Positions 1-56,496 of a DNA stretch of 64,000 bases are shown here, in pieces. Both the position numbers and the translations under genes were made by a program. Location of the stretch: the NCBI GenBank assembly GCA_002441305.1, contig DJVT01000009.1, positions 12,839 to 76,838 of the forward strand, given 5' to 3'. This DNA is from Candidatus Omnitrophica bacterium UBA6249. Its GTDB lineage: Bacteria > Omnitrophota > Gorgyraeia > Gygaellales > Profunditerraquicolaceae. Under the pieces are notes generated by a model. The model did not search any database. It had not been told where the DNA came from and was given only the letters and a program-made list of their open reading frames with translations. The stretch's first letter is position 1. Every line of letters begins with the position of its first letter.

Positions 1-2
1 GT

Positions 3-725
3 ACCGCTTCCGAGGCCTCAGGCGAGACCTGGAATAATATCGAAAAAAGCAAGCATTACATCATTTATTATCAGGACGCGCCGGCTAAATATATCAGGCG
101 CCTGGTAAGGGAAGCGGAACGCTGTTATAGGGATATTACCGGATACCTGGGGTTTGTCAGGTTCGATTTCTGGGTGTGGGATAACCGCTGTAAGATATTC
201 CTTTATCCCGACGCCGAGACTTACCGTTCTTCCACAGGCGCCCTGTCATGGTCGAGAGGCCATGTGCGCATATCCACCAAAGAGATCAGCACGTATATCG
301 GGCAGGAGATGTTTTTTGACACCATACTGCCGCATGAAATCGGGCATATCGTCTTCCGTGAATTCATAGGGTTCAACAGGCAGCTGCCCCTTTGGCTTGA
401 CGAGGGAGTAGCCTGTATGCAGGAGAAGGAAAGCAGGGATCGCCTGATTACGGCAAAGTGCCTGGTAGAGCTGAACTTGTATACGCATTTGGATGACCTC
501 TCCAGGATCAGCGATTCCAGCGTGATTATACCGTTTATTTTTTATAATGAATCCGCCAGTCTGGTGGATTTTCTTCTCAGGAGGTTCGGGAGGAATAAGT
601 TCGTTGATTTTTGCAGATCATTGCGCGACCAGCCGGATTGGGAGCAGTCTTTAAAGGGCGTATACAGGCTGAAGAATTTGGAAGAGCTGGAAAGGCTTTG
701 GGTCGCGGATTTGACCGAGAATTAG
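3..725 (+). CDS. Peptidase MA-like zinc metalloprotease, 5' end cut by window edge
   Basis: Frame is open from nt 3, with no stop before the listed Met at 174. HExxH motif in LPHEIGHIVF. C-terminal part resembles peptidase_MA_2-type proteins. Family call by eye only. Confidence 0.5.
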   Translation, partial: TASEASGETWNNIEKSKHYIIYYQDAPAKYIRRLVREAERCYRDITGYLGFVRFDFWVWDNRCKIFLYPDAETYRSSTGALSWSRGHVRISTKEISTYIGQEMFFDTILPHEIGHIVFREFIGFNRQLPLWLDEGVACMQEKESRDRLITAKCLVELNLYTHLDDLSRISDSSVIIPFIFYNESASLVDFLLRRFGRNKFVDFCRSLRDQPDWEQSLKGVYRLKNLEELERLWVADLTEN

Positions 726-748
726 ATTAGAATGGAGGAAATTTTTTT

Positions 749-1660
749 ATGAGGAACGATGTAAAGACGCGCGAATTCAACATTCTGGTAATCGAGGACG
801 ATGACAGAACATACAATACCATAAAGCAGGCTTTGATAAGCCCAGAGTATAAACTGCACAGAGTAACCAGCGGGGAAGAGGCGCTCAGGCTGGCCAAAGA
901 AGGGTATTTCGTCGCGATCATCACCGAGGTGCAGATCGGGGATATGAACGGGATAGAGCTTGTCCGCCGCCTGAGAAAGCTGGATCAGCGCATAAATATA
1001 ATCGGGCTTACCGTGTACGCTTTCGTCAATCTTGCGGTAGAGGCGATGAAGGAAGGGGTATATTCCTACCTGTTAAAACCTCTAAACACGGAGGAGCTGA
1101 ATTTGGTGGTGAGGCGTTCCATAGAGAACACTTTTCTTCTTATCCAGGCCGGGCAGAGGAAATATTACCAGGATATCGCCACTATGGACGGGCTTACCGG
1201 GGTATATAACCACCGCCATTTCCATGAGATGCTTGATTGGAATATCTCGCACTTGAACCGTTCCCCCCAGGCCTTCTCCCTGTTTATTATAGATATCGAT
1301 GATTTCAAGAAATATAACGATACCAAAGGGCATGTCGAAGGGGATAAGATATTGCATAATTTTGCCCAGCTTCTTGTCGCCTCTACCCGGGACAACGATA
1401 CGGTTTTCAGGTACGGGGGCGAGGAGTTTGCGGTAATCCTTTCCCAGACCGACCAGTGGGCGGCCCAAAAGGTGGCCGAGAGGCTGCTTGTCATAGTAAG
1501 GAGCAGGATGCCGGTAACCATGAGTATGGGGTTGGCCAGTTTCCCGATGAACGCGCAGGTAAAAAGCGACCTGGTTACCCGCGCCGACAAAGCGCTTTAC
1601 CGGGCGAAGGCGAGCGGCAAAAACAGGCTATGCACTTATGACGCGGGTTTAGACAAATGA
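749..1660 (+). CDS. Response-regulator receiver + GGDEF diguanylate cyclase
   Basis: N-terminal CheY-like receiver (VIEDDD, LLKP). C-terminal GGDEF domain with intact GGEEF and an RxxD I-site (RDND, 5 residues, GGEEF). Glu aligns where the phospho-acceptor Asp is expected (IITEVQIGDMNG). Confidence 0.85.
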   Translation: MRNDVKTREFNILVIEDDDRTYNTIKQALISPEYKLHRVTSGEEALRLAKEGYFVAIITEVQIGDMNGIELVRRLRKLDQRINIIGLTVYAFVNLAVEAMKEGVYSYLLKPLNTEELNLVVRRSIENTFLLIQAGQRKYYQDIATMDGLTGVYNHRHFHEMLDWNISHLNRSPQAFSLFIIDIDDFKKYNDTKGHVEGDKILHNFAQLLVASTRDNDTVFRYGGEEFAVILSQTDQWAAQKVAERLLVIVRSRMPVTMSMGLASFPMNAQVKSDLVTRADKALYRAKASGKNRLCTYDAGLDK

Positions 1661-1869
1661 AAAACTTTACCATTATTCTGATAATGCTGATCAGTACCCT
1701 GGGGCCTTCGGCGGTAATTGCGGCGGTGGGTTTTTCCGGGGTGAAGGCTATCGGCAGGAACCCTTCGGCTTCTCCGAAGATCCTGATTTCGATGATCCTG
1801 GCGTTTGTTTTCGCCGAGGCGATAGCGGTGATCGGGCTTTTGGTGGTTTACAACTTATTCGGGCAGTAA
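1657..1869 (+). CDS. atpE: F-type ATPase subunit c
   Basis: 70-aa two-helix hairpin with polar loop GRNPSA and a helix-2 carboxylate (FAEAIAV). Start overlaps the upstream stop (ATGA). Confidence 0.8.
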   Translation: MKNFTIILIMLISTLGPSAVIAAVGFSGVKAIGRNPSASPKILISMILAFVFAEAIAVIGLLVVYNLFGQ

Positions 1870-1942
1870 CCGGTTTGCGTTTCGGCAGGGATTGCCCCCG
1901 GGCGCGGTATCGGTTGGAAAGTTCGAAAACAGAGGAGCGGAC

Positions 1943-2701
1943 ATGCTGGTATGGCAGATAATCCTTATACAAATCGCTACTTTTACCCTGATCGTATTGT
2001 TTTTACGCTGGTTGCTTTATAGCCAGATCAGCCACGCGCTGGATAGGCTGCAAAGGCTCAACCAGCAGAATATGGAAAAAGAAAAGGCTTTGAAAGAGGA
2101 GTTCGAAAGAGCCAGGAAGCAGACGGAGATAGAGATACAGCGCGGCAAGGTCGAGGCCGAGAACATAAAAGAACAGGCCAAGGAAGACGCTGAAAAGACC
2201 AGGAGAAACCTGTTGGAATCCTCGAAAGACGAGGCAAAGAGGATCGTCAACGAAGGGGTAAGGGACAGCCAGAGGAAGTACAATGACCTGCTCCTTGAGA
2301 TGCAGGATAAGGCAGTTTACCTGGCGGTGGATATAGTAAAATACATTTTTACCGAAAGGATCCGTAAGAGCCTGCATTCCCAGGTTATCGAAGAATTGAT
2401 CGAGGATGTGGCCAGGCTGGACAAAGAGAAGATCAGGGCGCAGGGGGATAAAGCGGAGATTGTCTGCGCTTACAGCCTGGATGAAGGACAGAAGGAGCGC
2501 TTGCGCCAGGCGCTATCCAATAAGCTTGAGCGCAATATCGTGCTGGAAGAGACGCTCGACCCAGATGTGGTGGGAGGATTGATCATAAGATTGAGCGGAT
2601 TCGTGGTCATCGACGGCAGCATCAGGAATAAATTCAAGAGGATACTCCCGATGATGAAAGATAAGGCCAGGGCGGGGGTCGAACAGGCCGGGAAGGCTTA
2701 A
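1943..2701 (+). CDS. atpF: F-type ATPase subunit b fused to a delta (OSCP)-like C-terminal domain
   Basis: N-terminal TM helix plus a long charged coiled coil (b-like). The last ~65 aa align with the delta/OSCP C-terminus (VVGGLIIRLSGFVVIDGSIRNKFKRI). ATG 1943 is preceded by AGAGGAG. The ORF is open from 1892, but that extension looks non-coding. Confidence 0.7.
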   Translation: MLVWQIILIQIATFTLIVLFLRWLLYSQISHALDRLQRLNQQNMEKEKALKEEFERARKQTEIEIQRGKVEAENIKEQAKEDAEKTRRNLLESSKDEAKRIVNEGVRDSQRKYNDLLLEMQDKAVYLAVDIVKYIFTERIRKSLHSQVIEELIEDVARLDKEKIRAQGDKAEIVCAYSLDEGQKERLRQALSNKLERNIVLEETLDPDVVGGLIIRLSGFVVIDGSIRNKFKRILPMMKDKARAGVEQAGKA

Positions 2702-4201
2702 ATGCAGGAAATCAATTTAACCCCGTTAGAAATAAAAGACGTGGGGACGGTCAGGGAGATTAAGGGCGGGGTCATCAAGATAGACGGCCTTACGTCCTGC
2801 GTAAACGGTCAGTTGATCGAACTGGCCCCTGACCTGATGGGCATGGTCATCGGTTTCACCAAGAAGGATGTGCTTGTATTGGTTCTTGGCGATGAGAACA
2901 AGGTCCATATAGGGGATACCGTGTATGGCGAAGAAGGCGTTTTCGAGATCCCCGTAGGCAGTAATTTTCTCGGCAGGGTAGTCAATACCTTCGGCCAGCC
3001 GCTTGACGGCAAGGGGAAGATTGAGGGGGTAGACACTTATCCTATATTCAGGAGCGCTCCCGGAGTATTGGACAGGACTCCTATCGTCGAACCTTTTCTT
3101 ACCGGCACAAAGATAATCGATACCTGCATACCTTTGGGCAAGGGGCAGAGGGAGTTAATCCTGGGAGACCGGGTTACCGGCAAGACCACCCTGGTGATAG
3201 ACGCGATCATAAACCAGAAAGGGAAGGATGTAATCTGTATTTACTGCTGGATAGGCGGCAGCCAATCGGCCTTCCTGAAGATCATGGAGCAGCTTAAAGC
3301 CAGCGGCGCCCTGGAATGGACTATCGTGGTTACCGCTTCCGCTTCCGCGTCTCCGGCTGAACAATACCTTGTGCCTTACGCCGCCTGCGCGCTGGGCGAG
3401 TATTTCATGGACCACGGGCGCGACGTATTCTGCGCTTTCGATAACCTGAGTCGCCACGCCTGGATTTACCGCGAGATATCCCTGCTTCTGGAAAGGAGCC
3501 CGGGAAGAGAAGCTTACCCCGGGGATATATTCTATATCCATTCCCAGCTTATGGAAAGGGCAGGCAAGCTCAACGAAGAAAAGGGCAGCGGTTCGATGAC
3601 CTTCCTGCCGATCGTGGAAACCCAGGAAGGGGATATCACCGGCCTGGTGCAGTCCAACCTTGTCTCCATAACCGACGGGCAGATATACCTGAGTTCATCA
3701 CTTTTTAACGAAGGTTTCCGTCCGGCCATAGACCTGGGCCTTTCCGTCTCCCGTATCGGCAGCAAGGTGCAGTGCGATGCCATAAAAAAGGTGAGCCGTT
3801 CTTTGAAACGGGAGTTTGCCCAGTTCAAGGAATTGGCCGCGCTTACTACCATCAGGACCAAGCTTTCCCCGGAAATCGAACTCAGGCTTAAAAAGGGCCA
3901 GACCTTGAAGGACTTCCTGATCCAGGATAAGTCTAAACCGCTTTGCGTAGAGGAGATGATCGTGCTTTTCTATGCTTTCAGCAAGGAGCTTCCGCAGATA
4001 CTCGAGGAGTCGCAAAGGAGCAATTTCAAAAACAATATATACCCTTACCTGCTCAAGCATCATTCGGATATAATCGAGGAGTTGACCATCCAAAAGCTCC
4101 TTACCGGTGGGATAGAAAGAGGGCTGGACAAGGCCTTTGAGGATTTCTTCTCTGATTCCGAGGAAGAGAGCCAGGTTGTCCAAGAGCAGGAGGCGCAATG
4201 A
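2702..4201 (+). CDS. atpA: F1 ATPase alpha subunit (divergent)
   Basis: P-loop GDRVTGKTT. Conserved blocks SLLLERSPGREAYPGDIFYIHSQLMERA and PIVETQEGDITGLVQSNLVSITDGQIYL. Confidence 0.85.
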   Translation: MQEINLTPLEIKDVGTVREIKGGVIKIDGLTSCVNGQLIELAPDLMGMVIGFTKKDVLVLVLGDENKVHIGDTVYGEEGVFEIPVGSNFLGRVVNTFGQPLDGKGKIEGVDTYPIFRSAPGVLDRTPIVEPFLTGTKIIDTCIPLGKGQRELILGDRVTGKTTLVIDAIINQKGKDVICIYCWIGGSQSAFLKIMEQLKASGALEWTIVVTASASASPAEQYLVPYAACALGEYFMDHGRDVFCAFDNLSRHAWIYREISLLLERSPGREAYPGDIFYIHSQLMERAGKLNEEKGSGSMTFLPIVETQEGDITGLVQSNLVSITDGQIYLSSSLFNEGFRPAIDLGLSVSRIGSKVQCDAIKKVSRSLKREFAQFKELAALTTIRTKLSPEIELRLKKGQTLKDFLIQDKSKPLCVEEMIVLFYAFSKELPQILEESQRSNFKNNIYPYLLKHHSDIIEELTIQKLLTGGIERGLDKAFEDFFSDSEEESQVVQEQEAQ

Positions 4202-5094
4202 TCCCATTGACCATATTGCGCAAGGATCTCGCCTTTAACAAGGTAATGGAGAGCATTATCGATGTTTTGAAAGGCGTGGCCGCAACCGAGTATTTTCATC
4301 TCCAGAGCAAGAGAAAGAGTTTCGATGAGTTTGAGGCTTACCTGAGGGACATCTTTGCAATGGTGGATATAAATAATTTCCAGCATCCTTTTCTGGGCGG
4401 GGTCTCGGGAGGCAATAATATTATCCTGATTACCTCCGACAGCGGGTTTCTCGGCGAACTCAACATGTCGGTGGTAAATTACGGCCTGGCGCAGTACAGG
4501 AGCGGGGATACGCTTACGGTCGTGGGCAACGAAGGGGCGCGGTATATAAGCGAGAATGAAGCCAAGTATAAGAGTTTCCCGGGGATTGACGACGATATTT
4601 CTTATGACCTGGTGTTAAAACTCAGGGAGCATATAATCAAGGAGTTTACGAGTAAGAAGTTAAGCAATACCGTGATCATTTATCCGCATTTCGTTTCTTT
4701 CTCGGTGCAGAAAATAGAGCAATTCCAGCTTTTTCCCTGCCGTTTCTTGTTTCCCCAGGCCGCGCTGTCCGAAGGCTCCCATGGTAGGAAACCGGGCCTC
4801 TGGGAGATAGACCCTGAAGACAAGGTCGTGCTGGATTCTCCGCTTAAAGTGACTGTGGAGTACCTGGTGAGAATATGGATCGGACAGCTCCTGCATCTCA
4901 TATTCTGGGAGAGCAAACTTTCGGAGTGGGCGGCCAGGGTCATGCACCTGGAGCGGAGTACCAATGAGATCAAGGACCAGCAGAAGAAGCTGAGGCTTCA
5001 GTATTTCAGGACCATGCACGAGAGAAGCGACAAAAGCACCAGGGAAATCTTTGTGAGCAGGATGGCCTTGATCAAGACCGGGGCTATAGTGTAG
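4198..5094 (+). CDS. atpG: F1 ATPase gamma subunit (divergent)
   Basis: 298 aa in the gamma position between alpha and beta. Helical N- and C-termini, with a C-terminal LRLQYFRTMHERSDKSTREIF block resembling the gamma C-helix. ATGA overlap with atpA. Confidence 0.65.
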   Translation: MIPLTILRKDLAFNKVMESIIDVLKGVAATEYFHLQSKRKSFDEFEAYLRDIFAMVDINNFQHPFLGGVSGGNNIILITSDSGFLGELNMSVVNYGLAQYRSGDTLTVVGNEGARYISENEAKYKSFPGIDDDISYDLVLKLREHIIKEFTSKKLSNTVIIYPHFVSFSVQKIEQFQLFPCRFLFPQAALSEGSHGRKPGLWEIDPEDKVVLDSPLKVTVEYLVRIWIGQLLHLIFWESKLSEWAARVMHLERSTNEIKDQQKKLRLQYFRTMHERSDKSTREIFVSRMALIKTGAIV

Positions 5095-5115
5095 TTTTAT
5101 AAAAAGGGGGCAGGG

Positions 5116-6528
5116 ATGCAGCAGATGGGGAAAGTGGTTTCGGTACAAGGGCCAATCGTGGACGTGGAGTTTCCTCCCGATGTGTTGTTCCCCGCCGTTT
5201 ACGATATTATCGAGACCACTACTTTTGACGGGCAGAGGATAGTGCTCGAGGTAGTCGAGTATTTGAGCAAGGCGGAAACGGATAAGAATAATACCATGAG
5301 ATGCATCAGCCTTACTCCGAATTTCGGCCTGCGCAGGAACGCCAAGGCGGTCGCCACCGGTTCGACCATCTGTGTGCCGGTAGGTGAAAAGACCTGTTCC
5401 CGGATCCTTAATGTACTGGGAGAACCGCTGGATAAGGGCGGGCCCGTGGATGTGACGCCGGATATGACCCGGCCTACCCACCGTAACCATACTATTCCTA
5501 CCGTAGATACGAGCGAAGGCAAAGAGAAGAAATTCGAGGTGATGCAGACAGGGATCAAAATGTTCGATCTGCTTTTCCCCCTGATCAAAGGGTCGCGGAA
5601 CGGGATCCTGGGAGGCGCGGCCTGCGGCAAGAGCGTTATCATACTTGAGCTTATGCACAATATCATCAAGATGCAGAAAGGCTACTGCGTGTTTACCGGA
5701 GCGGGAGAGAGGACCAGGGAGGGTAATGAGCTTTATTACGAGATGGAGAAGCAGGGCATCCTGAACAGGGCGGCGCTTGTTTTCGGGCAGATGAACGAGT
5801 CTCCCGGGGCGAGGTTCGAGATCGTGCACACCGGCCTGACGCTGGCGGAGAATTTCGCCGAGGGCGGGGATGACGTGCTTCTATTCGTGGACAATGTTTA
5901 CAGATTCGCCCAGGCGGGTACCGAGCTTTCCACTCTTTTGGGCAGGATCCCCTCGGAGACCGGTTACCAGCCGACGCTTCCCTCGGAGATGGCCGAGTTC
6001 CAGGAACGCATACGTTCCCAGGGGCAGTCATCGATTACCGCTATGGAGGCCGTATATGTGCCTTCCGACGACCTTACCGACCCGGCGGTAGTCTGTATCT
6101 TCAGTTATCTGGATTCTATCGTTATTTTGTCCCGCCGCTACGTACAGTTGGGGCTTTTCCCCGCTATCGACGCCTTGACTTCTTCATGTTCATTCCTTGA
6201 TCCGATGATTATCGGTAAGAGGCATTTCAAGACAGCCCAGGATGTCTTGAGAATACTCAACCGTTACGAGGAACTCAGGAGGATAGTAGCTATCGTGGGG
6301 GTGGAGGAACTTTCCGGAGGGGACAGGATTATATTCGAACGCGCGCAGAAACTGCAGAATTTCCTTACCCAGCCGTTTTTCTGCGCGGAGGCTTACACCG
6401 GGAAAAAGGGGGAGTATGTTTCCTTGGACGCTACGCTGGAAGGCTGCGAAAGGATAGTCAGCGGACAGGTGGATAAAGTCCCTGCGGAAAAATTTTATAT
6501 GATCGGGGCCCTGCTGGAGAATCCTTAA
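5116..6528 (+). CDS. atpD: F1 ATPase beta subunit (divergent P-loop)
   Basis: GGAACGKS P-loop, [11 protein letters not shown] catalytic block, Walker B DVLLFVDN, and [13 protein letters not shown]. The DELSEED region reads EELSGGD. Confidence 0.85.
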
Positions 6529-6590
6529 AAGGCCGTCTGCCCAGGGCTTTGGGCCTAAAATCCCGGCGGTGAAAACAGGAGAAGGAAAAG

Positions 6591-8306
6591 ATGATTAAAA
6601 TCGGACAGATACTGATGGATAAGGGACTGGTTACTCCTGAACAGATGGAGATCGTTATCCAGGAGCAGGAGAGGACCGGCGAGCCGCTGGATACCATCCT
6701 GGTGAAAAAGAATTTCCTGAGCGAGGAGAGCTTCCTGAAAGTGCTCTCGGAACAGTTCAATATCCCGTTCATCAGGCTGAAGGAGACTTCTATCGACCCC
6801 CAGGCGGTAAAGAAGGTGCCGGCGAAGTTCGCCTGGTATTACAAGGTGATGCCGGTAAAATTCTCGGATAACAAACTGGTGATCGCATCCTCGGATCCCT
6901 TGCGCTCTCTGGATGATTTGAGGATATTCCTGGGGTATGATTTAAGCCCCGCCCTGGCCTCGGAGGCTGAAATCATGGAGGTGATCAAGGAGAACTACGG
7001 GGTTGGCGCAGAGACGGTGGAAGGGATAATCGCCAAGGCCCCCAAGGAGACCCCGGCGGCAAAGGAGTCCGGGGGCAAGATCGAGGACATAGAGAAGATG
7101 GCCGAGGATGCCTCGGTAGTCAAGCTGGTCAACCAGATAATCCTCGAGGCTTACGAAAAGAGGGCGACCGATATACATATCGAGCCGTTCCGGGGGAAGA
7201 TGAACATAAGATACCGTATCGACGGCGTGCTTTATAACGCTAACGTCCCGGCGGACATCGAGCGTTTCTTTTTGGCTATTGTCTCGCGTATAAAGATTAT
7301 GTCCCGGCTCAATATCGTTGAGCGCCGCCTCCCGCAGGACGGGCGCGCGGTTATAAAAATAGGCAGCGAAGAGCTGGACCTGAGGATTTCGATTATCCCC
7401 ACGCGTTACGGCGAAGGAATGGTAATAAGGATCCTGCCTATGAGTATGCTTTTCAGCCTGGAGCGCCTGGGTCTGGCGCCGGAGGACCTGGAGACCCTGG
7501 CGAAATTGATCAAGAAGCCGCACGGGATCATCCTGGTCACCGGGCCTACCGGCAGCGGAAAGAGTACTACGCTGTACGGATGCCTGAACGAGATAAAAAG
7601 CAGCCGGAACAAGATCATTACTATCGAGGACCCTATAGAATATGAGCTGGAGGGGATTACCCAGATACAGGTCATCCCGGAGATAGGTTTTACTTTTGCC
7701 CAGGGGTTAAGGAGCATATTGAGGCATGACCCGGATATCATGATGGTGGGCGAAATCAGGGATTTCGAGACAGCCGAGCTGGCCATCAGAAGCGCCTTGA
7801 CCGGGCATTTGGTTTTTTCTACCTTGCACACCAATGATGCCGCCGGAGCGGTCGCCAGGCTTTTGAATATCGGCATAGAGCCTTACCTGGTTGCCTCTTC
7901 CGTGGAGGCGTTTATCGCCCAGAGACTGGTGCGGCTTATCTGCCCCCAGTGTAAGCAGATAGACGAGAATGTCCCCGAGAATATAAGGACGATAATAAAA
8001 CAGGATATCGAGAGCAGCAAGTTCGGACGGGAGCATATAAAAGTTTCCGACTTCAAGATTTACAAGGGCCGCGGGTGCAAGGAATGCAATTTTACCGGGT
8101 ACAAAGGCAGGACGGCTATCCATGAGATCCTGGTTGCGGATAAGGGGATAAGGGATTTGATGCTGCGCAAGGCTTCTACTGATGAGCTGCGCGAGAAGGC
8201 GGTAGATGAAGGGATGAAGACCCTGCGCATCTGCGGGTGGAAAAAGATGATCGACGGCCTGACTACGCCCGAGGAGATCCTCAGGGTGACCCAGTCGGAG
8301 GAATAA
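6591..8306 (+). CDS. gspE: Type II secretion / type IV pilus assembly ATPase (GspE/PilB family) with N-terminal T2SSE_N (MshEN-like) domain
   Basis: Walker A GPTGSGKST, Asp/His boxes, and a tetracysteine region (CPQC...CKEC). The N-terminal ~110 aa resemble the T2SSE_N fold. Confidence 0.85.
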   Translation: MIKIGQILMDKGLVTPEQMEIVIQEQERTGEPLDTILVKKNFLSEESFLKVLSEQFNIPFIRLKETSIDPQAVKKVPAKFAWYYKVMPVKFSDNKLVIASSDPLRSLDDLRIFLGYDLSPALASEAEIMEVIKENYGVGAETVEGIIAKAPKETPAAKESGGKIEDIEKMAEDASVVKLVNQIILEAYEKRATDIHIEPFRGKMNIRYRIDGVLYNANVPADIERFFLAIVSRIKIMSRLNIVERRLPQDGRAVIKIGSEELDLRISIIPTRYGEGMVIRILPMSMLFSLERLGLAPEDLETLAKLIKKPHGIILVTGPTGSGKSTTLYGCLNEIKSSRNKIITIEDPIEYELEGITQIQVIPEIGFTFAQGLRSILRHDPDIMMVGEIRDFETAELAIRSALTGHLVFSTLHTNDAAGAVARLLNIGIEPYLVASSVEAFIAQRLVRLICPQCKQIDENVPENIRTIIKQDIESSKFGREHIKVSDFKIYKGRGCKECNFTGYKGRTAIHEILVADKGIRDLMLRKASTDELREKAVDEGMKTLRICGWKKMIDGLTTPEEILRVTQSEE

Positions 8307-8309
8307 AGA

Positions 8310-8549
8310 TTGTTCAAGACCTCGGTGCTCGATATCAAAACCGCTTCCGTCGTCTTCCAGGGGCTGGTTTCTTCGGTGACCCTTCCCGGAGAAGAGGGGG
8401 AGCTTTCCCTCCTGGACTTTCATGAACCGATCATTATCTGCCTGAAGGAAGGCGCGGTGAAGATAGATGACAATTCTCCTATGCCCATAAAGAGCGGCAT
8501 CGCGAGCATGAAAAATAATGAGCTGATAATGCTGCTGGAGAAAAAATAA
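8310..8549 (+). CDS. atpC: ATP synthase epsilon-like protein, N-terminal beta-sandwich domain only
   Basis: 79 aa, TTG start. LDIKTASVVFQGLVSSVTLPGEEGELSLLDFHEPIIICLKEGAVKI aligns by eye with E. coli AtpC [47 protein letters not shown]. No C-terminal helical hairpin. Confidence 0.6.
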   Translation: MFKTSVLDIKTASVVFQGLVSSVTLPGEEGELSLLDFHEPIIICLKEGAVKIDDNSPMPIKSGIASMKNNELIMLLEKK

Positions 8550-8550
8550 T

Positions 8551-9783
8551 ATGCCGTTATTCGCCTATAAAGCAAAAAAGGGCCCGCAGGAGATCGTGGA
8601 AGGGGTTGTTGAAGCCGGCTCCAAAGAGATAGCCGTGAGCAAGGTCGAGCAAATGGGTTATGTGCCCATACGTATCGAACCCAGGGGTGCCGGTGGCCAG
8701 AGCCAGCCTGTCAAGGCGCCTGTTTCGAAAGAGCCGGGATGGTTTGACAGGATAGGCTCGCGCGATTTGAACGTATTTACCGAACAGCTGGCTACGCTGG
8801 TAAAATCGAAGGTCCCGCTTTTTGAAGCAATAAACATTTTGTCCTCCCAGACGGAAAATCCAAAACTCAGGAATATAGTCGTATCTATAGCCGGGGACCT
8901 GAAAGACGGGAGGACTTTTTCGGAGGCTTTAAGCAGGTACCCGCATGTTTTTCCGCTCCTTTACGTGAATATGGTGCGTTCCGGGGAATCGGGGGGCGTG
9001 CTTGATGCGACGCTTACCAGGCTCGCCAAATTCAGAGAGGAGCAGGAGGAGATAAAGGCGAACATCACCTCAGCCCTGGCTTATCCCATATTTATAATTG
9101 TGGTAGGGATCCTGGTAGTGATAGTCCTGCTCACTTACGGCATTCCCCGTCTTGTCACGATGTTCAGCGAGACTAAACAAGTTCTGCCTCTTCCTACGCG
9201 GATACTTATCTCCATAAGCGACGGGATCAGGCATTATTGGTATCTTGGCATACTGCTCCTGTTTTTTATTTTTTCGGCGTTTAGGCAGAAGCAGCTCGCT
9301 GAAAAGAAAAAGGCCTTCCTCGACAGGATCAAATTGAGACTGCCTCTCCTGGGCGCCTTTAACAAAAAGGCTATGCTCGCGGAGTTCACGCGTACTTTTG
9401 CCTTGCTGCTGGAAAACGGAGTCCCCGTGCTGGAGGCTCTCCAGATAACCATCCCTACGATCAATAACGAGGTATTCCGGGTTGAGCTGGAGAAGGTGCA
9501 TGGCGATCTGCTTGTGGGCACGCCTCTTTCCCAGGGGATGAAAAAGTCAGACTGGTTCCCTCCGTTCCTTACCGACATGATAGCCGTAGGGGAAAGGGGA
9601 GGGAATCTGCAGGAGGTCCTGCTGGAAGTAGCGGTATTCTATGAACGCGAGGTAAAGAAGATAAATAAAATCTTGACCTCGTTGCTTGAACCGGCGATAA
9701 TCTTGGTTATGGGGATTGTGGTAGGGTTCATCGTGATGGCGATGCTCCTGCCCGTATTCGAGATAAATATGGGTATCAGATAA
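8551..9783 (+). CDS. gspF: Type II secretion / T4P platform protein (GspF/PilC family)
   Basis: 410 aa with a duplicated T2SSF-type cytoplasmic domain and three TM segments. Sits immediately downstream of the ATPase. Confidence 0.85.
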   Translation: MPLFAYKAKKGPQEIVEGVVEAGSKEIAVSKVEQMGYVPIRIEPRGAGGQSQPVKAPVSKEPGWFDRIGSRDLNVFTEQLATLVKSKVPLFEAINILSSQTENPKLRNIVVSIAGDLKDGRTFSEALSRYPHVFPLLYVNMVRSGESGGVLDATLTRLAKFREEQEEIKANITSALAYPIFIIVVGILVVIVLLTYGIPRLVTMFSETKQVLPLPTRILISISDGIRHYWYLGILLLFFIFSAFRQKQLAEKKKAFLDRIKLRLPLLGAFNKKAMLAEFTRTFALLLENGVPVLEALQITIPTINNEVFRVELEKVHGDLLVGTPLSQGMKKSDWFPPFLTDMIAVGERGGNLQEVLLEVAVFYEREVKKINKILTSLLEPAIILVMGIVVGFIVMAMLLPVFEINMGIR

Positions 9784-9803
9784 CTGCAGAACAAGGGGGA
9801 AAA

Positions 9804-10220
9804 ATGAGAGAGAAAAAAGGTTTTACCCTTATAGAACTTATGCTTGTTGTGGTCATTATTGGAGTCTTGGGGGCGATGGTCTTGCCGCGGCTTGCCGGGC
9901 GCTCCGACCAGGCTAAAACGGCGGTAGCTAAGTCCGATATAAACGCAAATATCGCCACTGCCCTTGACCTTTATGAGCTGGATAACGGGCGGTATCCCAC
10001 TACCGAACAGGGTTTGAGCGCGTTATCGACCAAGCCGGGTGACCTGTCCGAGGGGGCAAACTGGAATGGGCCCTATCTTAAGAAGGAGCCGCTTGACCCA
10101 TGGGGCAAGGCTTATCAGTATAAAAATCCGGCTACCCATGAAGGAGAGGATTACGATTTATATTCCATGGGAGCCGACGGCATAGAGAGCGATGATGATA
10201 TCGGAAATTGGGAAAAATAG
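9804..10220 (+). CDS. gspG: Major pseudopilin GspG
   Basis: Prepilin signal KKGFTLIELMLVVVIIGVL with Glu+5. GspG-type C-terminal block DPWGKAYQYK. Confidence 0.85.
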   Translation: MREKKGFTLIELMLVVVIIGVLGAMVLPRLAGRSDQAKTAVAKSDINANIATALDLYELDNGRYPTTEQGLSALSTKPGDLSEGANWNGPYLKKEPLDPWGKAYQYKNPATHEGEDYDLYSMGADGIESDDDIGNWEK

Positions 10221-10593
10221 AGCTTTTACTTTGATAGAGATAATGGTTGCCGTGGCCATCCTGTCGATGGGGTTGATTTTTGTGCTCCAGGGGCTTACCA
10301 AGTGCCTCGGGGTATTGAATACGGCGCGCTGCAGCCTTGAGGCAGGGCTTCTCGCAGAGGAGAAGATGGCGGAAGCGGAGATATCTTTCAGGAACGAAAA
10401 GAATGCCGCATTTACGGGTTTAAGCGGGCAGTCGGAAGCGGGAAACGTAGAATTCAGCTGGCAGGTAGGATTAGAGAGCGATGCGGAATACGACAACCTT
10501 TATCTGGTGCGCGATACAGTCCGCTGGAGAGAGGGGAAAAGAAGCGGGATAACCCCTTTGGTCACTTATTTTATGTCCGTAAATGTCAAGTAA
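10192..10593 (+). CDS. Minor pseudopilin (GspI/GspH-like)
   Basis: N-terminal KNRAFTLIEIMVAVAIL prepilin-type signal (Ala at -1). ~130 aa. Exact start uncertain. Confidence 0.5.
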   Translation: MMISEIGKNRAFTLIEIMVAVAILSMGLIFVLQGLTKCLGVLNTARCSLEAGLLAEEKMAEAEISFRNEKNAAFTGLSGQSEAGNVEFSWQVGLESDAEYDNLYLVRDTVRWREGKRSGITPLVTYFMSVNVK

Positions 10594-11200
10594 ACGCAGG
10601 CGCGGCATGAAGGGCAAGGGTTTTACCCTGCTTGAACTTATTATCAGCGGAGCGATAATCGTCCTGGTGTCGGTTACCGTATATTCCGTCTTCTCCGGTG
10701 GTATCGCGGTCTGGAAAAAGGCCTATCTTGCCCGGAATCAGGGGCACAAGTTGAGGCTGGCCATCGATAAGATGAGTGTGGAGGTAAGGAATTCTTTCCG
10801 GTTTTCTTCCATACCTTTCGAAGGCACAGAAGACTCTGTTTCTTTTCCTTCTGTCTGCGAAGGGAACGTAAGCAGGGTAAGCTATTTTCTGAATGAAGAT
10901 AAGGTTTTTTGCCGCGCGGTGGAGAGTTATGCGCAGGTTTTTAAAAAGGATGAGCAGGGGAGCGTCTATGCCATTTTGTCCCCGGTGGCGGAGTTGAAGT
11001 TCAGCTATTGTTATCTTGATAACGCCAGCGGGGAATACAAATGGAAGGACGACTGGGTCAGGGATGAACAGGATACCCTGCCCCGGGCGTTGAGGGTAGA
11101 GTTGTTTTTCGGAGAGAAAGCCGGGGAAGAAGCCGATCTTGTCAAGACTATCTTTATCCCCATCGGCACGGGGGGACAGAAGAAGGAGCTTGTGCAATAA
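10583..11200 (+). CDS. Minor pseudopilin (GspJ-like)
   Basis: KGKGFTLLELIISGAIIV prepilin-type signal. ~200 aa, in the position between the I-like and K genes. An alternative ATG lies a few codons downstream. Confidence 0.45.
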   Translation: MSSKRRRGMKGKGFTLLELIISGAIIVLVSVTVYSVFSGGIAVWKKAYLARNQGHKLRLAIDKMSVEVRNSFRFSSIPFEGTEDSVSFPSVCEGNVSRVSYFLNEDKVFCRAVESYAQVFKKDEQGSVYAILSPVAELKFSYCYLDNASGEYKWKDDWVRDEQDTLPRALRVELFFGEKAGEEADLVKTIFIPIGTGGQKKELVQ

Positions 11201-12237
11201 TGCTTCTTACCGGGAAAACAAAGGCTTATTCTACCCGCGCAAGCATACTGATTATCGTATTGTGGATCCTGGCTTTTTTGACCATGCTTGTGGTGAATCT
11301 GGGCTTTATGGTCAGGTCGCAGCTGCAGTTTGCCAGGCACCTCCAGGACAGGATGAAGATGTATTATCTTGCGCGGGCCGGCATAGAAAGGGCGATTGTC
11401 GAATTGTACGAGGATGAAAGCCCGAGCTGCGATACGCTCAACGAGACCTGGGCGAATAATGGCGAGTTCTTCGATAGTTTCCAGTTGGGCGGGGGGTTCT
11501 TTACCGTCAGTTATCCCTCCGGGGGCAAAGACCAGGAGGACGAAGACGCTTTCGTGCTTTACGGGGCGATGGATGAAAGCGCAAGGATAGATATAAACAG
11601 CGCGCAGGAGGATATAATAGTTAATTTGCTTGAGCGCGTGGGCGGGATGGATAAGGAGGACGCCATAGATACGGCGCGCTGTATCGCAGATTGGCGCGAT
11701 AAAGATGTCGCGCTTTCCGTGGGAGGGGCGGAGAACGATTATTACCAGGGGCTTTCTTCGCCCTATGAGTGCAAAAACGGCAAATTCCAGGTGGCCGAAG
11801 AGTTGCTTTTGGTTAAAGGGATGAGCGAAGAGGTTTTTTCCAGGATCAAGGATGTGATTACAGTGTATGATACCGAAAAAGTCAATATCAATACCGCCGG
11901 GTTTAAATGCCTGTATGCCCTGGGGCTGGAAAGCGGGCTCTGCGAGGATATAATCGAATACAGGAACGGGGGAGACGGAGTCCCGGGCACGGAGGATGAC
12001 CCGGTTTTTAATTCGCCTTCGGAATTGATGAATATTGGTTCTTTATTCACGGAAGAAGCGGCACAGATAAACACCTTGGTCTCGCGGAATATACTTACGG
12101 TGAGGTCAGATACCTTCAGGATTATCTCTTTGGGCCAGATGAAGGATGACAGCGCCACGCGTTCCAGGCAGATCGTCTGCGTGCTCAAGCGCCAGAATAC
12201 CAAGGATCCTAAAATATTATATTGGCATGAAAATTGA
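11200..12237 (+). CDS. gspK: Minor pseudopilin GspK-like
   Basis: N-terminal hydrophobic helix ASILIIVLWILAFL without Glu+5, ~345 aa, a DESARIDINSA block and helix-hairpin-helix-like repeats typical of GspK. Confidence 0.65.
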   Translation: MLLTGKTKAYSTRASILIIVLWILAFLTMLVVNLGFMVRSQLQFARHLQDRMKMYYLARAGIERAIVELYEDESPSCDTLNETWANNGEFFDSFQLGGGFFTVSYPSGGKDQEDEDAFVLYGAMDESARIDINSAQEDIIVNLLERVGGMDKEDAIDTARCIADWRDKDVALSVGGAENDYYQGLSSPYECKNGKFQVAEELLLVKGMSEEVFSRIKDVITVYDTEKVNINTAGFKCLYALGLESGLCEDIIEYRNGGDGVPGTEDDPVFNSPSELMNIGSLFTEEAAQINTLVSRNILTVRSDTFRIISLGQMKDDSATRSRQIVCVLKRQNTKDPKILYWHEN

Positions 12238-13729
12238 CCTGAACAACATATTTCAAAAACAAGAAAAAATCGTCACCGTCCTTCAGATGGACAATAACTG
12301 GCTGAGGCTTATCCAGGTAAAACAGATCAAGAAGGATAAAAAGGTCTGCATGATCAAGGCGCTGGGGATTTCCTCTTTGCCTGATGAGGAGATCTCGCGC
12401 AGGGTCACCGGGCTGGCCGCAGAGCTCAAGATAAACTCCCGTTACCTGGTCCTTTCCGTGCCCAGGCACCTTACCACTACCAGGAATCTGGATCTCCCTT
12501 CTGCCAATCCCTCGGAGATAAAAGATATGATCGAGCTCCAGATCGGCAAGCAGACTCCATATGCCAGCGACGAGGTAATCAAGGATTACCAGATTCTGGG
12601 AAGCAACGCGGACGGTTATAGCAGCGTGCTCCTGGTTATTGTGCATAAGGATATAGTCTCCAGGTATTTCAAGATCCTGGAGAACGCCGGGCTCAAGGTG
12701 CAAAAGGTAAGTTTCAGCTCGGAGGGGCTGCTCAACTGGAAAAACCTGGTCTGCCGGGACAAGGTGCCCTCGGACAAGGTGCAGATCCTCATAGACGTGG
12801 ATTGCGATACCAGCGATTTCGAGGTCGTGCTTAATGAAAAACTGGTTTTCGGCAGGAGCATATCCCTGGGGATTTCGCAGTTCCCCGGGCAGATCGAACA
12901 ATGGCAGAAGAAGTTTATCGAGGAGATAGGGCATTCCATATACGCCTACCAGAACGAGATTACGGGCAAGGAGGTGGCCAAGATAATCATCAGCCGCCCC
13001 CGCCTTCTCGCGGACAGCCTGGATAAAGAAACGCTGGAGAAAGAGCTTGGCGCTCCCGTGGAGATAATGGACCAGTTTAAGGGCATCCCCCTGACCGAAG
13101 AGGGGCTGGTTTCTTACAATAACCTGGTAAGGACCGACCTGTCTTACGCCGGGTTGATCGGGCTCGGGCTTCCCGCCGGGGAGCACAAGATCGACCTTAT
13201 CCCCCAGGAGCACCAGATCGGCAGGGCGGTTAAGGAGAAGGGGAAAGACCTGTATCTTATGGGCATACTGCTTGTCTTCATACTGGTTGCCGTATCCGGC
13301 GTATTCCTCGGCAGGATGTATAACAAGGAAAGGTACCTTGGGCAATTGAAGCGCCGCCTGGCGGATATACAGTCCAAGACCAAGGAATTGAACGGGATGA
13401 TCCGCGGCATAGAAGCGATAAAAGAAAGGGTTTATACGCGGGGCAGCGCGTTGAACCTGATTTATGAGGTCCATAAGGCGCTTCTTCCGGAGATGCACTT
13501 GACCTCGATAAGTTTCGAAGGCAAAGAAGAGATGACCTTAAGAGGCCAATCCAACGAGATGTCCGAGGTGTTCAGTTTTGTCAGCAAGCTGGAGGAGTCC
13601 GGGTATTTCCAGAATGTCAAGTCCAAGTACGCCACAAAGCGCAAGGTAGGGGATAAAGAGGTAACCGAATTCGAGATATCCTGTCCCCTGGAGAATAAAT
13701 ACAAGATAAAGGACAAGTACGAACTTTAG
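12227..13729 (+). CDS. GspL-like assembly protein (PilM-type actin-like domain + TM + PilN-like periplasmic part)
   Basis: The in-frame ATG at 12227 overlaps the gspK stop. N-terminal PilM-like ATPase fold, then a single TM (LYLMGILLVFILVAVSGVFL), then a C-terminal alpha/beta region. The ORF is open from 12146, but that part overlaps gspK. Confidence 0.55.
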   Translation: MKIDLNNIFQKQEKIVTVLQMDNNWLRLIQVKQIKKDKKVCMIKALGISSLPDEEISRRVTGLAAELKINSRYLVLSVPRHLTTTRNLDLPSANPSEIKDMIELQIGKQTPYASDEVIKDYQILGSNADGYSSVLLVIVHKDIVSRYFKILENAGLKVQKVSFSSEGLLNWKNLVCRDKVPSDKVQILIDVDCDTSDFEVVLNEKLVFGRSISLGISQFPGQIEQWQKKFIEEIGHSIYAYQNEITGKEVAKIIISRPRLLADSLDKETLEKELGAPVEIMDQFKGIPLTEEGLVSYNNLVRTDLSYAGLIGLGLPAGEHKIDLIPQEHQIGRAVKEKGKDLYLMGILLVFILVAVSGVFLGRMYNKERYLGQLKRRLADIQSKTKELNGMIRGIEAIKERVYTRGSALNLIYEVHKALLPEMHLTSISFEGKEEMTLRGQSNEMSEVFSFVSKLEESGYFQNVKSKYATKRKVGDKEVTEFEISCPLENKYKIKDKYEL

Positions 13730-13735
13730 AAAAAT

Positions 13736-14269
13736 ATGGATTTTTTGTCACGTTTGTCAAAAAAAGAAAAGCGCCTGTTCTACATAACGGTGGCAGTGGT
13801 CGCCCTGGTTTTGTTCGACAGGGTAGTATTCAGGCCGGTGATGGAGAAACTCGACGACCTCAACGAGAAGATTTCTATCGAGGAGAAGAAGCTCGAGAAG
13901 TCCATGCTCATAATTGCCCAGGATGCAACGATAAGCGAGGAGTATAAGAAGTTCGCCCAAAGCATAAAGCAGGAGCAGTCCGATGAAGAGGCGATAGCCG
14001 GGCTGCTCAGCAGCATCGAAAAGATGGGCAAGAGCGTCGCCGTTTTCATACAGGATATAAAGCCTAACGCGGTGGATAAATCGGAATTCTACAAGAAATA
14101 TTCCGTCAAGATTGAGGCGGAGACAAAAATTAGCAACCTGGCTGATTTTATCTATCAGCTGGAGAATTCCCCGCAGCTGCTCAGGGTTTCCGATTTCCGC
14201 CTTACCCCGCAGAAAAAGGAAGGTCTCCTTAAGGTCAATATGACGGTTACCGAAATCCTGATAAATTAA
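13736..14269 (+). CDS. GspM/PilO-like bitopic membrane protein
   Basis: 177 aa with one N-terminal TM and a coiled coil. The call rests on its position after the L-like gene; no strong motif. Confidence 0.35.
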   Translation: MDFLSRLSKKEKRLFYITVAVVALVLFDRVVFRPVMEKLDDLNEKISIEEKKLEKSMLIIAQDATISEEYKKFAQSIKQEQSDEEAIAGLLSSIEKMGKSVAVFIQDIKPNAVDKSEFYKKYSVKIEAETKISNLADFIYQLENSPQLLRVSDFRLTPQKKEGLLKVNMTVTEILIN

Positions 14270-29276: not shown

Positions 29277-29395
29277 CCGGGATTATTTTAATTGCTAAAA
29301 GCGTATCCGGTTTGTATAATGGTTGAAATGCCTGCCTTGCGCAGGCTTAATTGTCGGTAGGGGTATTTGCCGGGAGGATTGGTTGGAGCGTGCTG

Positions 29396-43622: not shown

Positions 43623-44315
43623 ATGACCATGCCGTCACATGCGCGCAGGCACCAGTTGCAGCAATCGTTGGTATATCATGCATTCAGCAGAAGCAGCGGG
43701 CGCAGGGAGATTTTTCATAACTCCCGGGACTTCGCATACTTCAAGAAATTAATCAAGGATTATACAGATAAATTTGGGATCAGTGTGTATCATTGGGTGA
43801 TCATGCCGAATCATTACCATCTTGTTCTTGAGCTTGATGTTCCTGAATCGATCTCCGGTTTTATGGCAGGATTGCACCGGGCGTATAGCCATTATTACTG
43901 CAGGAGATACGATACGGTGGGATTCTTGTGGCAGGGGAGATTCAAATTACAGCCGGTGCAGAAAGAGGCGTATTTGAAGAATTGCGGCAGGTATGTGGAA
44001 AGGAATCCGGTGCGTTCCGGGTTCGTTAAAGAGGCCTGTGAATATAACTATGGCAGCGCGCGATTCTATTGTTTGGGAGAAGAGGACGGGATAACAAAAA
44101 TGAGCCCTTATTTCGATGAATTCGGGAATAATATCAGGGCCAGGCAGGTGGCCTATAAAGAGTTCTTAAGCGTCCTTGACCGGGGGGATGAAGATCGTTT
44201 TTCCGGTGCGGGTATTATTTGCGGCGATAAGGTTTTTATCGGGAAACTGGTAAAAATGAACGGGCATTATTTTCCGAGAAGGAGCGGAAGAAGAAGGCTT
44301 TCTGGAGAGAGTTAA
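43623..44315 (+). CDS. REP-associated tyrosine transposase (RAYT; IS200-like Y1/HUH transposase family)
   Basis: HUH motif in MPNHYHLVL, WQGRF block, and the catalytic-Tyr context RYVERNPVR. AAAGGAGG RBS precedes the start. Confidence 0.8.
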   Translation: MTMPSHARRHQLQQSLVYHAFSRSSGRREIFHNSRDFAYFKKLIKDYTDKFGISVYHWVIMPNHYHLVLELDVPESISGFMAGLHRAYSHYYCRRYDTVGFLWQGRFKLQPVQKEAYLKNCGRYVERNPVRSGFVKEACEYNYGSARFYCLGEEDGITKMSPYFDEFGNNIRARQVAYKEFLSVLDRGDEDRFSGAGIICGDKVFIGKLVKMNGHYFPRRSGRRRLSGES

Positions 44316-47483: not shown

Positions 47484-47487
47484 AAAA

Positions 47488-49204: not shown

Positions 49205-49211
49205 ATAAATA

Positions 49212-49240
49212 TTGACAGGGAGAGGGGATGAAAGTAAGAT
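49212..49240 (+). promoter_or_regulatory. Possible sigma70-like promoter for the 49272 gene
   Basis: TTGACA (49212..49217), 17-nt spacer, TAAGAT (49235..49240), just after the R outer box of unit D. Confidence 0.35.
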
Positions 49241-49271
49241 AAATAAATAAACTTTAGCTAAGGGCAGATAG

Positions 49272-50638: not shown

Positions 50639-50653
50639 AGCATACACAAAGAT

Positions 50654-52291: not shown

Positions 52292-52292
52292 A

Positions 52293-53051: not shown

Positions 53052-53082
53052 CCAGAAATTTCTTTATTTTCCTTCGTATAGT

Positions 53083-53163
53083 GGTATAATATTACCCATT
53101 GTTCTTAATATGGTATTTCTTTTCTAACCACTTAGTTTTGTTTAAGTTACATACTTTATTTAC
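53083..53163 (+). repeat. Degenerate copy of the two-box repeat at the start of the glycan island
   Basis: Inner-like TGGTATTTCTTTTCTAAC at 53111..53128, a 17-nt linker, then GTTACATACTTTATTTAC at 53146..53163 (first 8 and last 3 nt match the outer box). A possible left-inner remnant GGTATAATATTACC lies at 53083..53096. Confidence 0.3.
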
Positions 53164-53184
53164 TGGACTAAATTTGGGGGATAG

Positions 53185-54144: not shown

Positions 54145-54157
54145 TTTTTTGTTCGAT

Positions 54158-56487: not shown

Positions 56488-56496
56488 AAGGAAGAT

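Follow-up and report, generated by a model that had tools for sequence, protein, structure and literature searches.

Genes of F-type ATPases that adjoin the genes of type IV filaments have been described in the bacterial phylum Omnitrophota. According to the main text of Seymour et al. (2023, PMC10066038), type-4a pilus clusters adjoin genes of a non-respiratory or 'symbiotic' F-type ATPase in 56 of 111 Velamenicoccia species, V. archaeovorus LiM among them; on 57 of 66 contigs the distance between pilus and ATPase genes is at most 10 kb, with all Omnitrophota classes represented, and a role of these loci in attachment or motility was proposed. Loci that resemble type II secretion systems (T2SS), and gspD, have been reported near the giant genes of this phylum (West-Roberts et al., 2023). 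Among 176 complete Omnitrophota genomes alpha and beta were found in 125, a gamma that is recognisable by KEGG Orthology (KO) in only 30-35, and subunits of a V/A-type ATPase in 70-99% of the class Gorgyraeia outside one small order (preprint 10.64898/2026.06.07.730766). Additional F1-like ATPases are also known from Mycoplasma, namely type 2, the G1-ATPase that powers gliding in M. mobile, and type 3, the F1-like X0 required by the MIB-MIP system (Beven et al., 2012; PMC12994834), and N-ATPases are encoded in operons of the order atpDCQRBEFAG that include subunit a, AtpQ and AtpR, their subunit c usually having two Glu and a Na+ motif (Dibrova et al., 2010, PMC2881411). Here, we analysed a stretch of 64,000 nucleotides from contig DJVT01000009.1 of Candidatus Omnitrophica bacterium UBA6249 (hereafter the 64-kb window), in which F-type ATPase genes and genes of a secretion or filament machine are interleaved in one gene string. 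We consider it fairly probable that this string forms a single conserved module: an F-type motor that hydrolyses ATP would work for the filament machine, cyclic di-GMP (c-di-GMP) from the module's own cyclase would control both ATPases, and the epsilon gene that is wedged between gspE and gspF would encode the ordinary epsilon of the motor.

A previous analysis of the letters without any database search, here called the sequence-only reading, did not recognise the locus as a described arrangement. The co-location of F-type ATPase and filament genes is, however, already known for the phylum and published (Seymour et al., 2023). The loci in the main text of that study are from Omnitrophota, have F-type alpha/beta genes no more than 10 kb from GspE/F-type genes and are often found near giant open reading frames (ORFs); likewise, the homologues of the window's genes belong to Omnitrophota, and beta and gspE are 62 nt apart. 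The same main text is concerned with the phylogeny of alpha/beta and with co-location, and neither subunit composition, the position of epsilon, c-di-GMP nor beta-MshEN fusions are dealt with there; the first three topics are likewise absent from the parts of the West-Roberts et al. and 2026 preprint texts that were available. Literature searches for an F-type ATPase with type II secretion and for MshEN with ATP synthase gave nothing relevant. Thus, as far as we found, the subunit inventory without subunit a, the polarity of the epsilon move and the link to c-di-GMP including the MshEN-beta fusions are new. Coordinates are those of the whole window throughout; the module spans 749-14269 on the + strand, and each gene that the sequence-only reading had listed was recovered in the same order, at its coordinates and on this strand:

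749..1660, + strand: REC-GGDEF diguanylate cyclase, PleD-like (PF00990 1.9e-40; PF00072 8.5e-21; TIGR00254 148 bits, cut-off 37)
1657..1869, + strand: F-type subunit c, 70 aa, with RNP loop and membrane Glu54 (PF00137 33.6 bits, cut-off 24)
1943..2701, + strand: b/delta peripheral-stalk protein, 252 aa (PF00430 and PF00213)
2702..4201, + strand: F1 alpha (Pfam; atpA TIGR00962 543 bits, cut-off 484)
4198..5094, + strand: F1 gamma, strongly diverged (PF00231 97 bits, above the cut-off of 40; TIGR01146 68 bits, below that of 194)
5116..6528, + strand: F1 beta (Pfam; atpD TIGR01039 541 bits, cut-off 463)
6529..6590, + strand: spacer between beta and gspE, 62 nt, with a small hairpin (sequence; terminator scan)
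6591..8306, + strand: assembly ATPase of the GspE/PilB family with an N-terminal MshEN motif (PF00437 2e-128; PF05157)
8310..8549, + strand: F1 epsilon, 79 aa, the N-terminal beta-sandwich alone (PF02823 39.2 bits, cut-off 27; TIGR01216 E=8.5e-12)
8551..9783, + strand: GspF/PilC platform protein (PF00482 1.9e-69; TIGR02120 370 bits, below the cut-off of 424)
9804..10220, + strand: GspG major pseudopilin with prepilin motif G|FTLIE (PF08334 1.2e-33; TIGR01710 165 bits, cut-off 89)
10192..10593, + strand: GspI-like minor pseudopilin (PF07963 2.5e-7; TIGR01707 26.6 bits, below the cut-off of 44)
10583..11200, + strand: GspJ-like minor pseudopilin (PF11612 30.9 bits, above the cut-off of 28; TIGR01711 39 bits, below that of 65)
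11200..12237, + strand: GspK-like minor pseudopilin (PF21687 2.7e-16; NF037980 87 bits, below the cut-off of 130)
12227..13729, + strand: PilM-PilN fusion, a GspL-like assembly-platform protein of 500 aa (PF11104, PF05137; pilM TIGR01175 1e-20)
13736..14269, + strand: PilO/GspM-like protein (PF04350 42 bits, above the cut-off of 22; GspM NF040576 46 bits, below that of 60)

The stop of the cyclase gene and the start of the subunit c gene share an ATGA overlap, as do the genes of alpha and gamma; 3 nt separate gspE from the 79-aa ORF, and a single nucleotide separates this ORF from gspF. For b/delta the true start is probably 1943, which gives a protein of 252 aa like those of the relatives, and the PilM-PilN fusion gene is called with 500 aa in an independent assembly of the locus (L111) as well.

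The stronger evidence for a module comes from its conservation across relatives rather than from tight packing. A genome scan with beta gave 24 loci, 17 of them from the system, and a metagenome scan with the system-specific gamma gave 80; further loci were added from context look-ups, and profiles built on the window's proteins and on bona fide a subunits were used to annotate all loci. The gamma family comprises 224 clusters at 50% identity (E<=1e-10). Directly after beta follows gspE in 55 of the 56 system loci that extend at least 1.5 kb 3' of beta, and in the 56th, L086, gspE is next in order too. This linkage persists over clades whose gamma proteins share 29-82% identity, despite a reshuffled order of the F, L, M, G, I, J and K genes. 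In neighbour-joining (NJ) trees the combined alpha and beta sequences of the system formed a clade, to the exclusion of the canonical and N-ATPase outgroups, in 200 of 200 bootstraps, and the close homologues all come from metagenome-assembled genomes (MAGs) of Candidatus Omnitrophota/Omnitrophica. The nearest matches of the beta scan outside the system, L024 (9881-16614) and L025, are genuine N-ATPase operons of the order beta-epsilon-Q-R-a-c-b-alpha-gamma in MAGs labelled Spirochaetales, and they were used as outgroups, the a-subunit profiles being derived from them too. Hence, the survey of synteny that the sequence-only reading had proposed bears out its joining of F-type and gsp genes, which is conserved across about 100 related loci. 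Some module-bearing MAGs carry other labels (L010, L011 and L015 Planctomycetales; L020 and L021 Nitrospiria/Nitrospirota; P0076 Dehalococcoidia); near-identical module-bearing MAGs with such labels are almost certainly mislabelled Omnitrophota.

A joining of an atp contig to a gsp contig by chimeric assembly, against which the sequence-only reading had wanted the junctions checked, is contradicted by independent assemblies. The Logan assembly of the locus (L111) is 100% identical to window positions 1-12701, that is, over 12.7 kb, and an ENA assembly (L112) is collinear with the window at 98.8% identity. The window's b/delta protein is present in identical form on nine contigs, GC content is uniform across the junctions, and the same order recurs in dozens of independent MAGs and metagenomes. 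Because independent assemblies give the same gene order, the locus is not chimeric, and we attach practically no weight to an assembly artefact. Co-expression of a rotary ATPase with a filament machine, suggested before from the tight arrangement, fared less uniformly. It fits the deep adjacency of the two gene sets, which is seen in clades with gamma identities of 29-40%, but tight packing as such is weak evidence for an operon, because co-directional genes with short gaps are the norm across the 64 kb: all identified genes are on the + strand, gaps are short and the GC skew is positive throughout. The hairpin GCCCA/TGGGC that had been pointed out in the beta-gspE spacer was confirmed at 6539-6554; it lacks a T-run, and the terminator scan showed no terminator-like site in this gap. 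In relatives the spacer measures 20-71 nt, and in L021 the two genes overlap or abut. As a regulatory element the hairpin was therefore dropped, given the missing T-run and a spacer that varies in length or is absent. The promoter-like hits of the promoter/terminator scan are uninformative for Omnitrophota.

The epsilon gene is the second feature that needs explanation. That the 79-aa ORF encodes an epsilon-like protein was a correct call: it matches ATP-synt_DE_N (PF02823) with 39.2 bits (gathering cut-off 27, E=6.8e-10), and its sequence matches in the PDB are epsilon chains only, aligned over their N-terminal domains. The ORF starts at a TTG codon with GGAGGA 7 nt upstream. Its 23 close homologues are 63-99% identical and each 77-79 aa long, and in all sequences examined epsilon has 77-91 aa, the C-terminal inhibitory helices being absent. 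An AF2 monomer model made with the 23 close homologues reached a pLDDT of just 49, and the identification is based on the Pfam, NCBIfam and PDB sequence matches. In all clades other than that of the window, epsilon is found at the head of the locus, in the order (GGDEF) epsilon-c-b/delta-alpha-gamma-beta-gspE; a strict test places it upstream of c in at least 21 loci, gene order adds about 10 more, and every non-window clade is represented among them. The position between gspE and gspF is restricted to 24 loci, all from the window clade. This clade is monophyletic in 200 of 200 bootstraps and nested among the epsilon-first clades in the NJ tree of alpha+beta.

Canonical atp operons end with atpD-atpC, and the window reads beta-gspE-epsilon. 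An insertion of gspE into an atpD-atpC junction, by which two formerly separate canonical operons were fused in the lineage of the window, was one of two explanations offered by the sequence-only reading, and these two orders speak for it. It does not hold up against the relatives: in all remaining clades the F-type set begins with epsilon, ahead of c, and the beta-gspE junction is in place; a split in which the window clade is sister to all epsilon-first clades appeared in 1 of 200 bootstraps. We therefore regard an insertion as very improbable. Since the window clade is nested among clades with a 5' epsilon and an established beta-gspE junction, it was epsilon that moved and not gspE that was inserted: by the tree and the gene orders, the epsilon-first order is ancestral, and the position between gspE and gspF is derived and arose in the ancestor of the window clade. 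The other explanation offered, recruitment of an epsilon-type protein as an accessory of the secretion ATPase and platform, is not needed, as the same orthologous epsilon adjoins c elsewhere. A weaker form of it, in which epsilon was re-purposed within the window clade and its translationally coupled position reflects a new partner, could draw on the flanking gaps of just 3 nt and 1 nt, on a position that is constant in 24 of 24 window-clade loci, and on the lower conservation of epsilon within the clade (63-75% identity, compared to 83-89% among the betas of the members aligned). Small proteins generally evolve faster, however, and this epsilon is not only the orthologue of the one next to c in other clades, it is also the sole epsilon of a locus that has kept gamma, c and beta, so that the F1 rotor still requires it. 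Re-purposing thus appears improbable to us.

The c-di-GMP thread starts with the first gene of the module. The REC-GGDEF protein has a GGEEF active site and an RxxD I-site, and both are kept in the orthologues that immediately precede the module, which are found in the window clade and several deep clades. Its receiver domain has a Glu (IITEVQ, ~residues 55-62) at the place where the phospho-acceptor Asp is expected. The Glu is shared by the window clade and two neighbouring clades, and Asp is found in the more basal L023, L057/58 and L060; a receiver with Glu may make the cyclase independent of phosphorylation or constitutively 'on'. A putative reader of c-di-GMP is present on GspE, whose residues 3-55 pass the NCBIfam model NF053729 (c-di-GMP_motif) with 57 bits against a cut-off of 38, and the tandem 24-residue pattern RLGxxLLxxGLLxxxxLxxxLxxQ that characterises MshEN is found at its N-terminus (KIGQILMDKGLVTPEQMEIVIQEQ). 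An Rfam scan of the window, with the c-di-GMP riboswitch among the families sought, returned nothing at gathering threshold.

In a sister clade this type of module is also found on the rotary ATPase. There, F1 beta has a C-terminal extension of MshE-related c-di-GMP motif modules, of the same kind as those at the start of the adjacent GspE. The beta of L020 (3378-5585) has four modules with 251 bits on NF053729, and that of L021 (4083-6314) has the same four-repeat sequence; just one module is present in the beta of L094 (76 bits on NF053729) and, likewise, in the betas of L099, L107 and L109. A further clade has a separate gene for an MshEN protein of ~150 aa in the interval from beta to gspE; the L077 product, with 158 aa, scores 67 bits on NF053729:

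stand-alone MshEN protein: L073:4527-4991, L074:2936-3472, L076:12288-12737, L077:12248-12739, L078:12173-12715

These recurrent fusions are independent evidence, of the Rosetta-stone type, for a regulator or partner common to the F1 ATPase and GspE. An MshEN domain attached to F1 beta was not found in the literature searched.

The F-type enzyme itself combines an intact catalytic part with reduced periphery. Alpha has the Walker A motif GDRVTGKT and the Arg finger SVSRIG; beta has the P-loop GGAACGKS and the catalytic GERTREG, with EELSGGD in place of DELSEED. The P-loops, the catalytic Glu and the Arg finger of a canonical alpha3beta3 hexamer are thus all in place. Both subunits match ordinary F1 structures with about 400-486 bits, and for beta the PDB matches amount to 400-463 bits with canonical F1 beta as opposed to 316 bits with the beta of the M. 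mobile G1-ATPase. Of the rotor, gamma (PF00231), epsilon (PF02823) and c (PF00137) are all recognised above Pfam gathering scores, and because all three lie below the NCBIfam equivalog cut-offs they can be called diverged. The b/delta protein combines a single transmembrane (TM) helix and a long helix of the b type with the C-terminal domain of delta, whose N-terminal domain is absent; an AF2 model (pLDDT 87.5) predicts a helix at 2-135 and an alpha/beta domain at 170-251, and in Foldseek the modelled C-terminal domain superimposes on delta C-terminal domains with an rmsd of 1.1-1.9 A at 29-37% identity. Its best NCBIfam match is N-ATPase subunit b (TIGR03321; residues 4-231 of 252, 66 bits, below the cut-off of 225). 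Alpha lacks ~14 N-terminal residues that form the delta-binding helix, residue 8 of the query being aligned with residue 22 of the solved chains in the PDB alignments. Compared to canonical F1Fo, both the N-terminal domain of delta and the C-terminal domain of epsilon have therefore been lost. In two of the surveyed loci an ATPase gene is split into two overlapping ORFs, alpha in L010 (2812-4474) and gamma in L023 (4462-5474), which could be due to a frameshift sequencing error or to decay of the ATPase genes in those genomes.

The most conspicuous gap in the inventory is subunit a. No a subunit (PF00119) was found by Pfam in the 64-kb window, where the scan covered the longest + strand ORFs of at least 150 aa, and a profile search detected none in any of 101 system loci (0/101); the same profiles detect a in the ordinary operons L024, L025 and L030. 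In ordinary operons recovered by the same scan a and c are adjacent, whereas at the level of these loci the canonical arrangement, in which a is encoded next to c, is not found. A recurrent unassigned polytopic ORF is likewise missing within +-4 kb of the system loci. In the supplementary KO table of Seymour et al., as far as it was available, one genome has K02111 and K02112 without K02108, but KO misses c in it too. Subunit c has kept GRNPSAxPK, and its membrane Glu is present in 44 of 45 distinct family members aligned, with Ala in L061. It is the best-conserved small protein of the module (c genes of ~60 loci), with ~70% identity across clades in which gamma is 29-40% identical.

These observations bear on the main rival to a dedicated motor, which we rank second, ahead of all other rivals: an ion-translocating enzyme, either the housekeeping ATP synthase or an H+/Na+ pump, with its a subunit encoded elsewhere and its genes next to gsp genes as a result of genome streamlining or of a shared need for energy. 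Both T2SS and type IV pili depend on ATP and the proton motive force for function. The conserved RNP loop and Glu of c would suit such an enzyme, and so would the co-directional, tightly packed genes of the whole window and the scores of alpha and beta, which pass the atpA/atpD equivalog cut-offs. What speaks against it is that a was found in none of the 101 loci although it adjoins c in ordinary operons, that the linkage to gspE has outlasted deep divergence and internal rearrangement, that some betas are fused to MshEN modules like that of GspE, and that the epsilon C-terminal domain, the delta N-terminal domain and the N-terminal helix of alpha have all been lost. Omnitrophota, moreover, usually own a V/A-type or a separate 'respiratory' F-type enzyme. 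An ion-translocating enzyme of this kind thus seems unlikely to us.

We therefore favour the dedicated motor as the best explanation. The F-type complex would not be the ATP synthase of the cell but an ATP-hydrolysing motor dedicated to the filament machine. The argument against a synthase is that the loci lack a, that epsilon, delta and alpha have lost the domains and the helix named above, and that the catalytic residues of alpha and beta are intact; in addition, most Omnitrophota carry a V/A-type ATPase, and many genomes with alpha and beta have no recognisable gamma. By analogy, the F1-like ATPases of Mycoplasma types 2 and 3 give a precedent for such a use. It seems plausible that the operon's own cyclase makes c-di-GMP, that MshEN modules read it and that both ATPases are switched on together; the reader would be located on GspE in the window, and sister clades would have further readers, either on beta or as a stand-alone protein.

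Several points weigh against this explanation. The retained Glu of c normally implies ion binding against a stator Arg, and because c keeps it, the genome may encode an a subunit outside the locus. Alpha and beta pass cut-offs that were set for ordinary atpA and atpD. Binding of c-di-GMP by GspE is a prediction from the motif, and the first motif residue of the window's GspE is Lys instead of Arg. Co-transcription fits, but the single-strand packing throughout the genome weakens an argument from gene order, and the NJ trees are simple distance trees. Finally, the link between the two machines is read from genes and sequences, and functional or physical coupling as well as an operation by hydrolysis only would follow from it indirectly. 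A bolder version goes further, and we regard it as tentative and rather doubtful: the F1/c-ring rotor might be a physical part of the filament machine, a second rotary motor without a, held by the condensed b/delta stalk, that exerts torque on the GspF platform or the base of the pseudopilus, for instance to rotate, retract or load pilins, standing in for the missing PilT. The Glu of c would then face a component of the filament machine, and both motors might be gated by c-di-GMP via MshEN on GspE and on the beta of sister clades.

The filament half is best called the inner-membrane set of a T2SS/T4aP-like type IV filament (T4aP, type IVa pilus). GspG alone scores above its equivalog cut-off; E, F, I, J, K and M match their own Gsp model best but remain below the cut-offs, and GspE scores 576 bits against the GspE cut-off of 630 and 558 bits against the PilB cut-off of 676. 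As in a T2SS, GspE, F, G and the minor pseudopilins I/J/K are present. A secretin (GspD/PilQ), GspC/PilP, GspH, a prepilin peptidase and PilT were found neither in the locus nor elsewhere in the 64-kb window, so that GspD, GspC and GspO, which would complete a T2SS, are possibly encoded elsewhere. Nor does the set correspond to a type IVa pilus: it includes PilO and a fusion of PilM to PilN, but PilP, PilQ and PilT were not found in the window, and the major subunit is of the GspG type. A second, isolated PilM_2-like gene (528 aa, 29351-30937) was seen among housekeeping genes 15 kb 3' of the module.

Upstream, the module is preceded by a gene that is cut by the window:

1..725, + strand: Peptidase_MA_2 metalloprotease with HEIGH motif, 5' end cut by the window edge (PF13485 34.5 bits, cut-off 32.4)

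The full gene, seen whole in L111/L112, encodes an exported protein of 261 aa with a lipoprotein-type signal peptide (N-terminus MRVKKTIWAGVLLLGFIFSAC). The same peptidase gene precedes the module in the window clade and also in a second clade (L086, L088-L090), and because of this recurrence the peptidase may be a substrate or partner of the secretion machine. In this region (L111:1-8783), a giant gene lies 5' of the peptidase gene in the window clade; more than 4,200 aa are seen before it leaves the locus, and its product has a single TM helix at the C-terminal end. Farther downstream, sugar-nucleotide and glycan genes (NTP transferases, many epimerases/dehydratases, a glycosyltransferase and a GHMP kinase) occupy 44701-63232, probably a surface-polysaccharide island. 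Within this run the G+C content falls from ~0.51 to 0.34-0.44 over 54-64 kb, and its start is flanked by an IS200-like Y1 transposase (43623-44315) and an ORF6N-domain gene (48633-49145). No tRNA genes were found in the 64-kb window.

If the favoured explanation is true, the locus adds another independent case in which a rotary F1 motor was recruited to a surface nanomachine, beside the export ATPase of flagella and type III secretion systems (T3SS) and the Mycoplasma motors, and it would be the first F1-type recruitment that keeps the c-ring. For annotation, the presence of such loci explains why KO surveys report an 'incomplete F1Fo' in most Omnitrophota genomes, and the details of subunits, cyclase and MshEN-beta fusions turn a brief published remark into hypotheses that can be tested. 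The system probably bears on how the ultra-small, host-dependent Omnitrophota attach to or attack other cells.

A comparison with the known systems shows where the module stands. Like the Mycoplasma type 2 and 3 enzymes, it comprises an extra F1-type alpha3beta3-gamma-epsilon motor for a surface machine without a (in the window, at the level of the locus), and the type 3 alpha has lost the N-terminal delta-binding helix as the window's alpha has (PMC12994834). The seven-gene clusters of Mycoplasma, however, encode 12-TM, 2-TM and small cytoplasmic proteins and neither c nor b/delta (PMC12994834), which is the opposite of the window, and the partner machine consists of gliding legs or MIB-MIP there and of a type IV filament here. 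In the main text of Seymour et al. (2023) alpha is placed with Mycoplasma types 2/3, but the window's alpha and beta score far higher on ordinary atpA/atpD models and F1 structures. They remain below the NCBIfam cut-offs for MMOB1660/1670 and MSC_0619/0618 (402<600, 385<850, 317<520 and 369<570), and in a tree without Mycoplasma sequences the system forms a clade separate from the ordinary and N-type outgroups, alpha and beta being nearer, by profile score, to atpA/atpD than to the Mycoplasma models. With the N-ATPase the module shares that it encodes a second divergent F-type enzyme thought to be non-synthesising, with a long b that has a delta-like C-terminus and without a separate delta, and the order epsilon...c-b-alpha-gamma resembles a rotated N-ATPase operon. 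The window differs in that it has no a, Q or R and that its c has a single Glu and no ESTxxY motif. A derivation from the N-ATPase, considered on account of the b-type stalk and the gene order, was rejected: no special affinity was seen, and L024 and L025 are outside the system clade (NJ).

An analogy is given by FliH-FliI-FliJ (SctL-SctN-SctO), in which an F1-related ATPase works with gamma-like and b/delta-like partners in filament export. This export ATPase of flagella and injectisomes is, in contrast, a homohexamer without alternating alpha and beta, c-ring or epsilon and belongs to a different secretion system; it is only a distant relative, and the window's alpha and beta score 170-210 bits against FliI/SctN models compared to about 540 against atpA/atpD. 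In the filament half, one gene string encodes GspE, F and G, the tip pseudopilins I/J/K and a platform of the L/M type, as in canonical T2SS and T4aP; this half differs from them by the lack of secretin, GspC/PilP, GspH, prepilin peptidase and PilT within the window and by an L that is a PilM-PilN fusion. Control of MshE/PilB by c-di-GMP, finally, has its likely counterpart here in a GspE whose N-terminus passes an MshE-related motif model and in a diguanylate cyclase that is encoded in the same putative operon.

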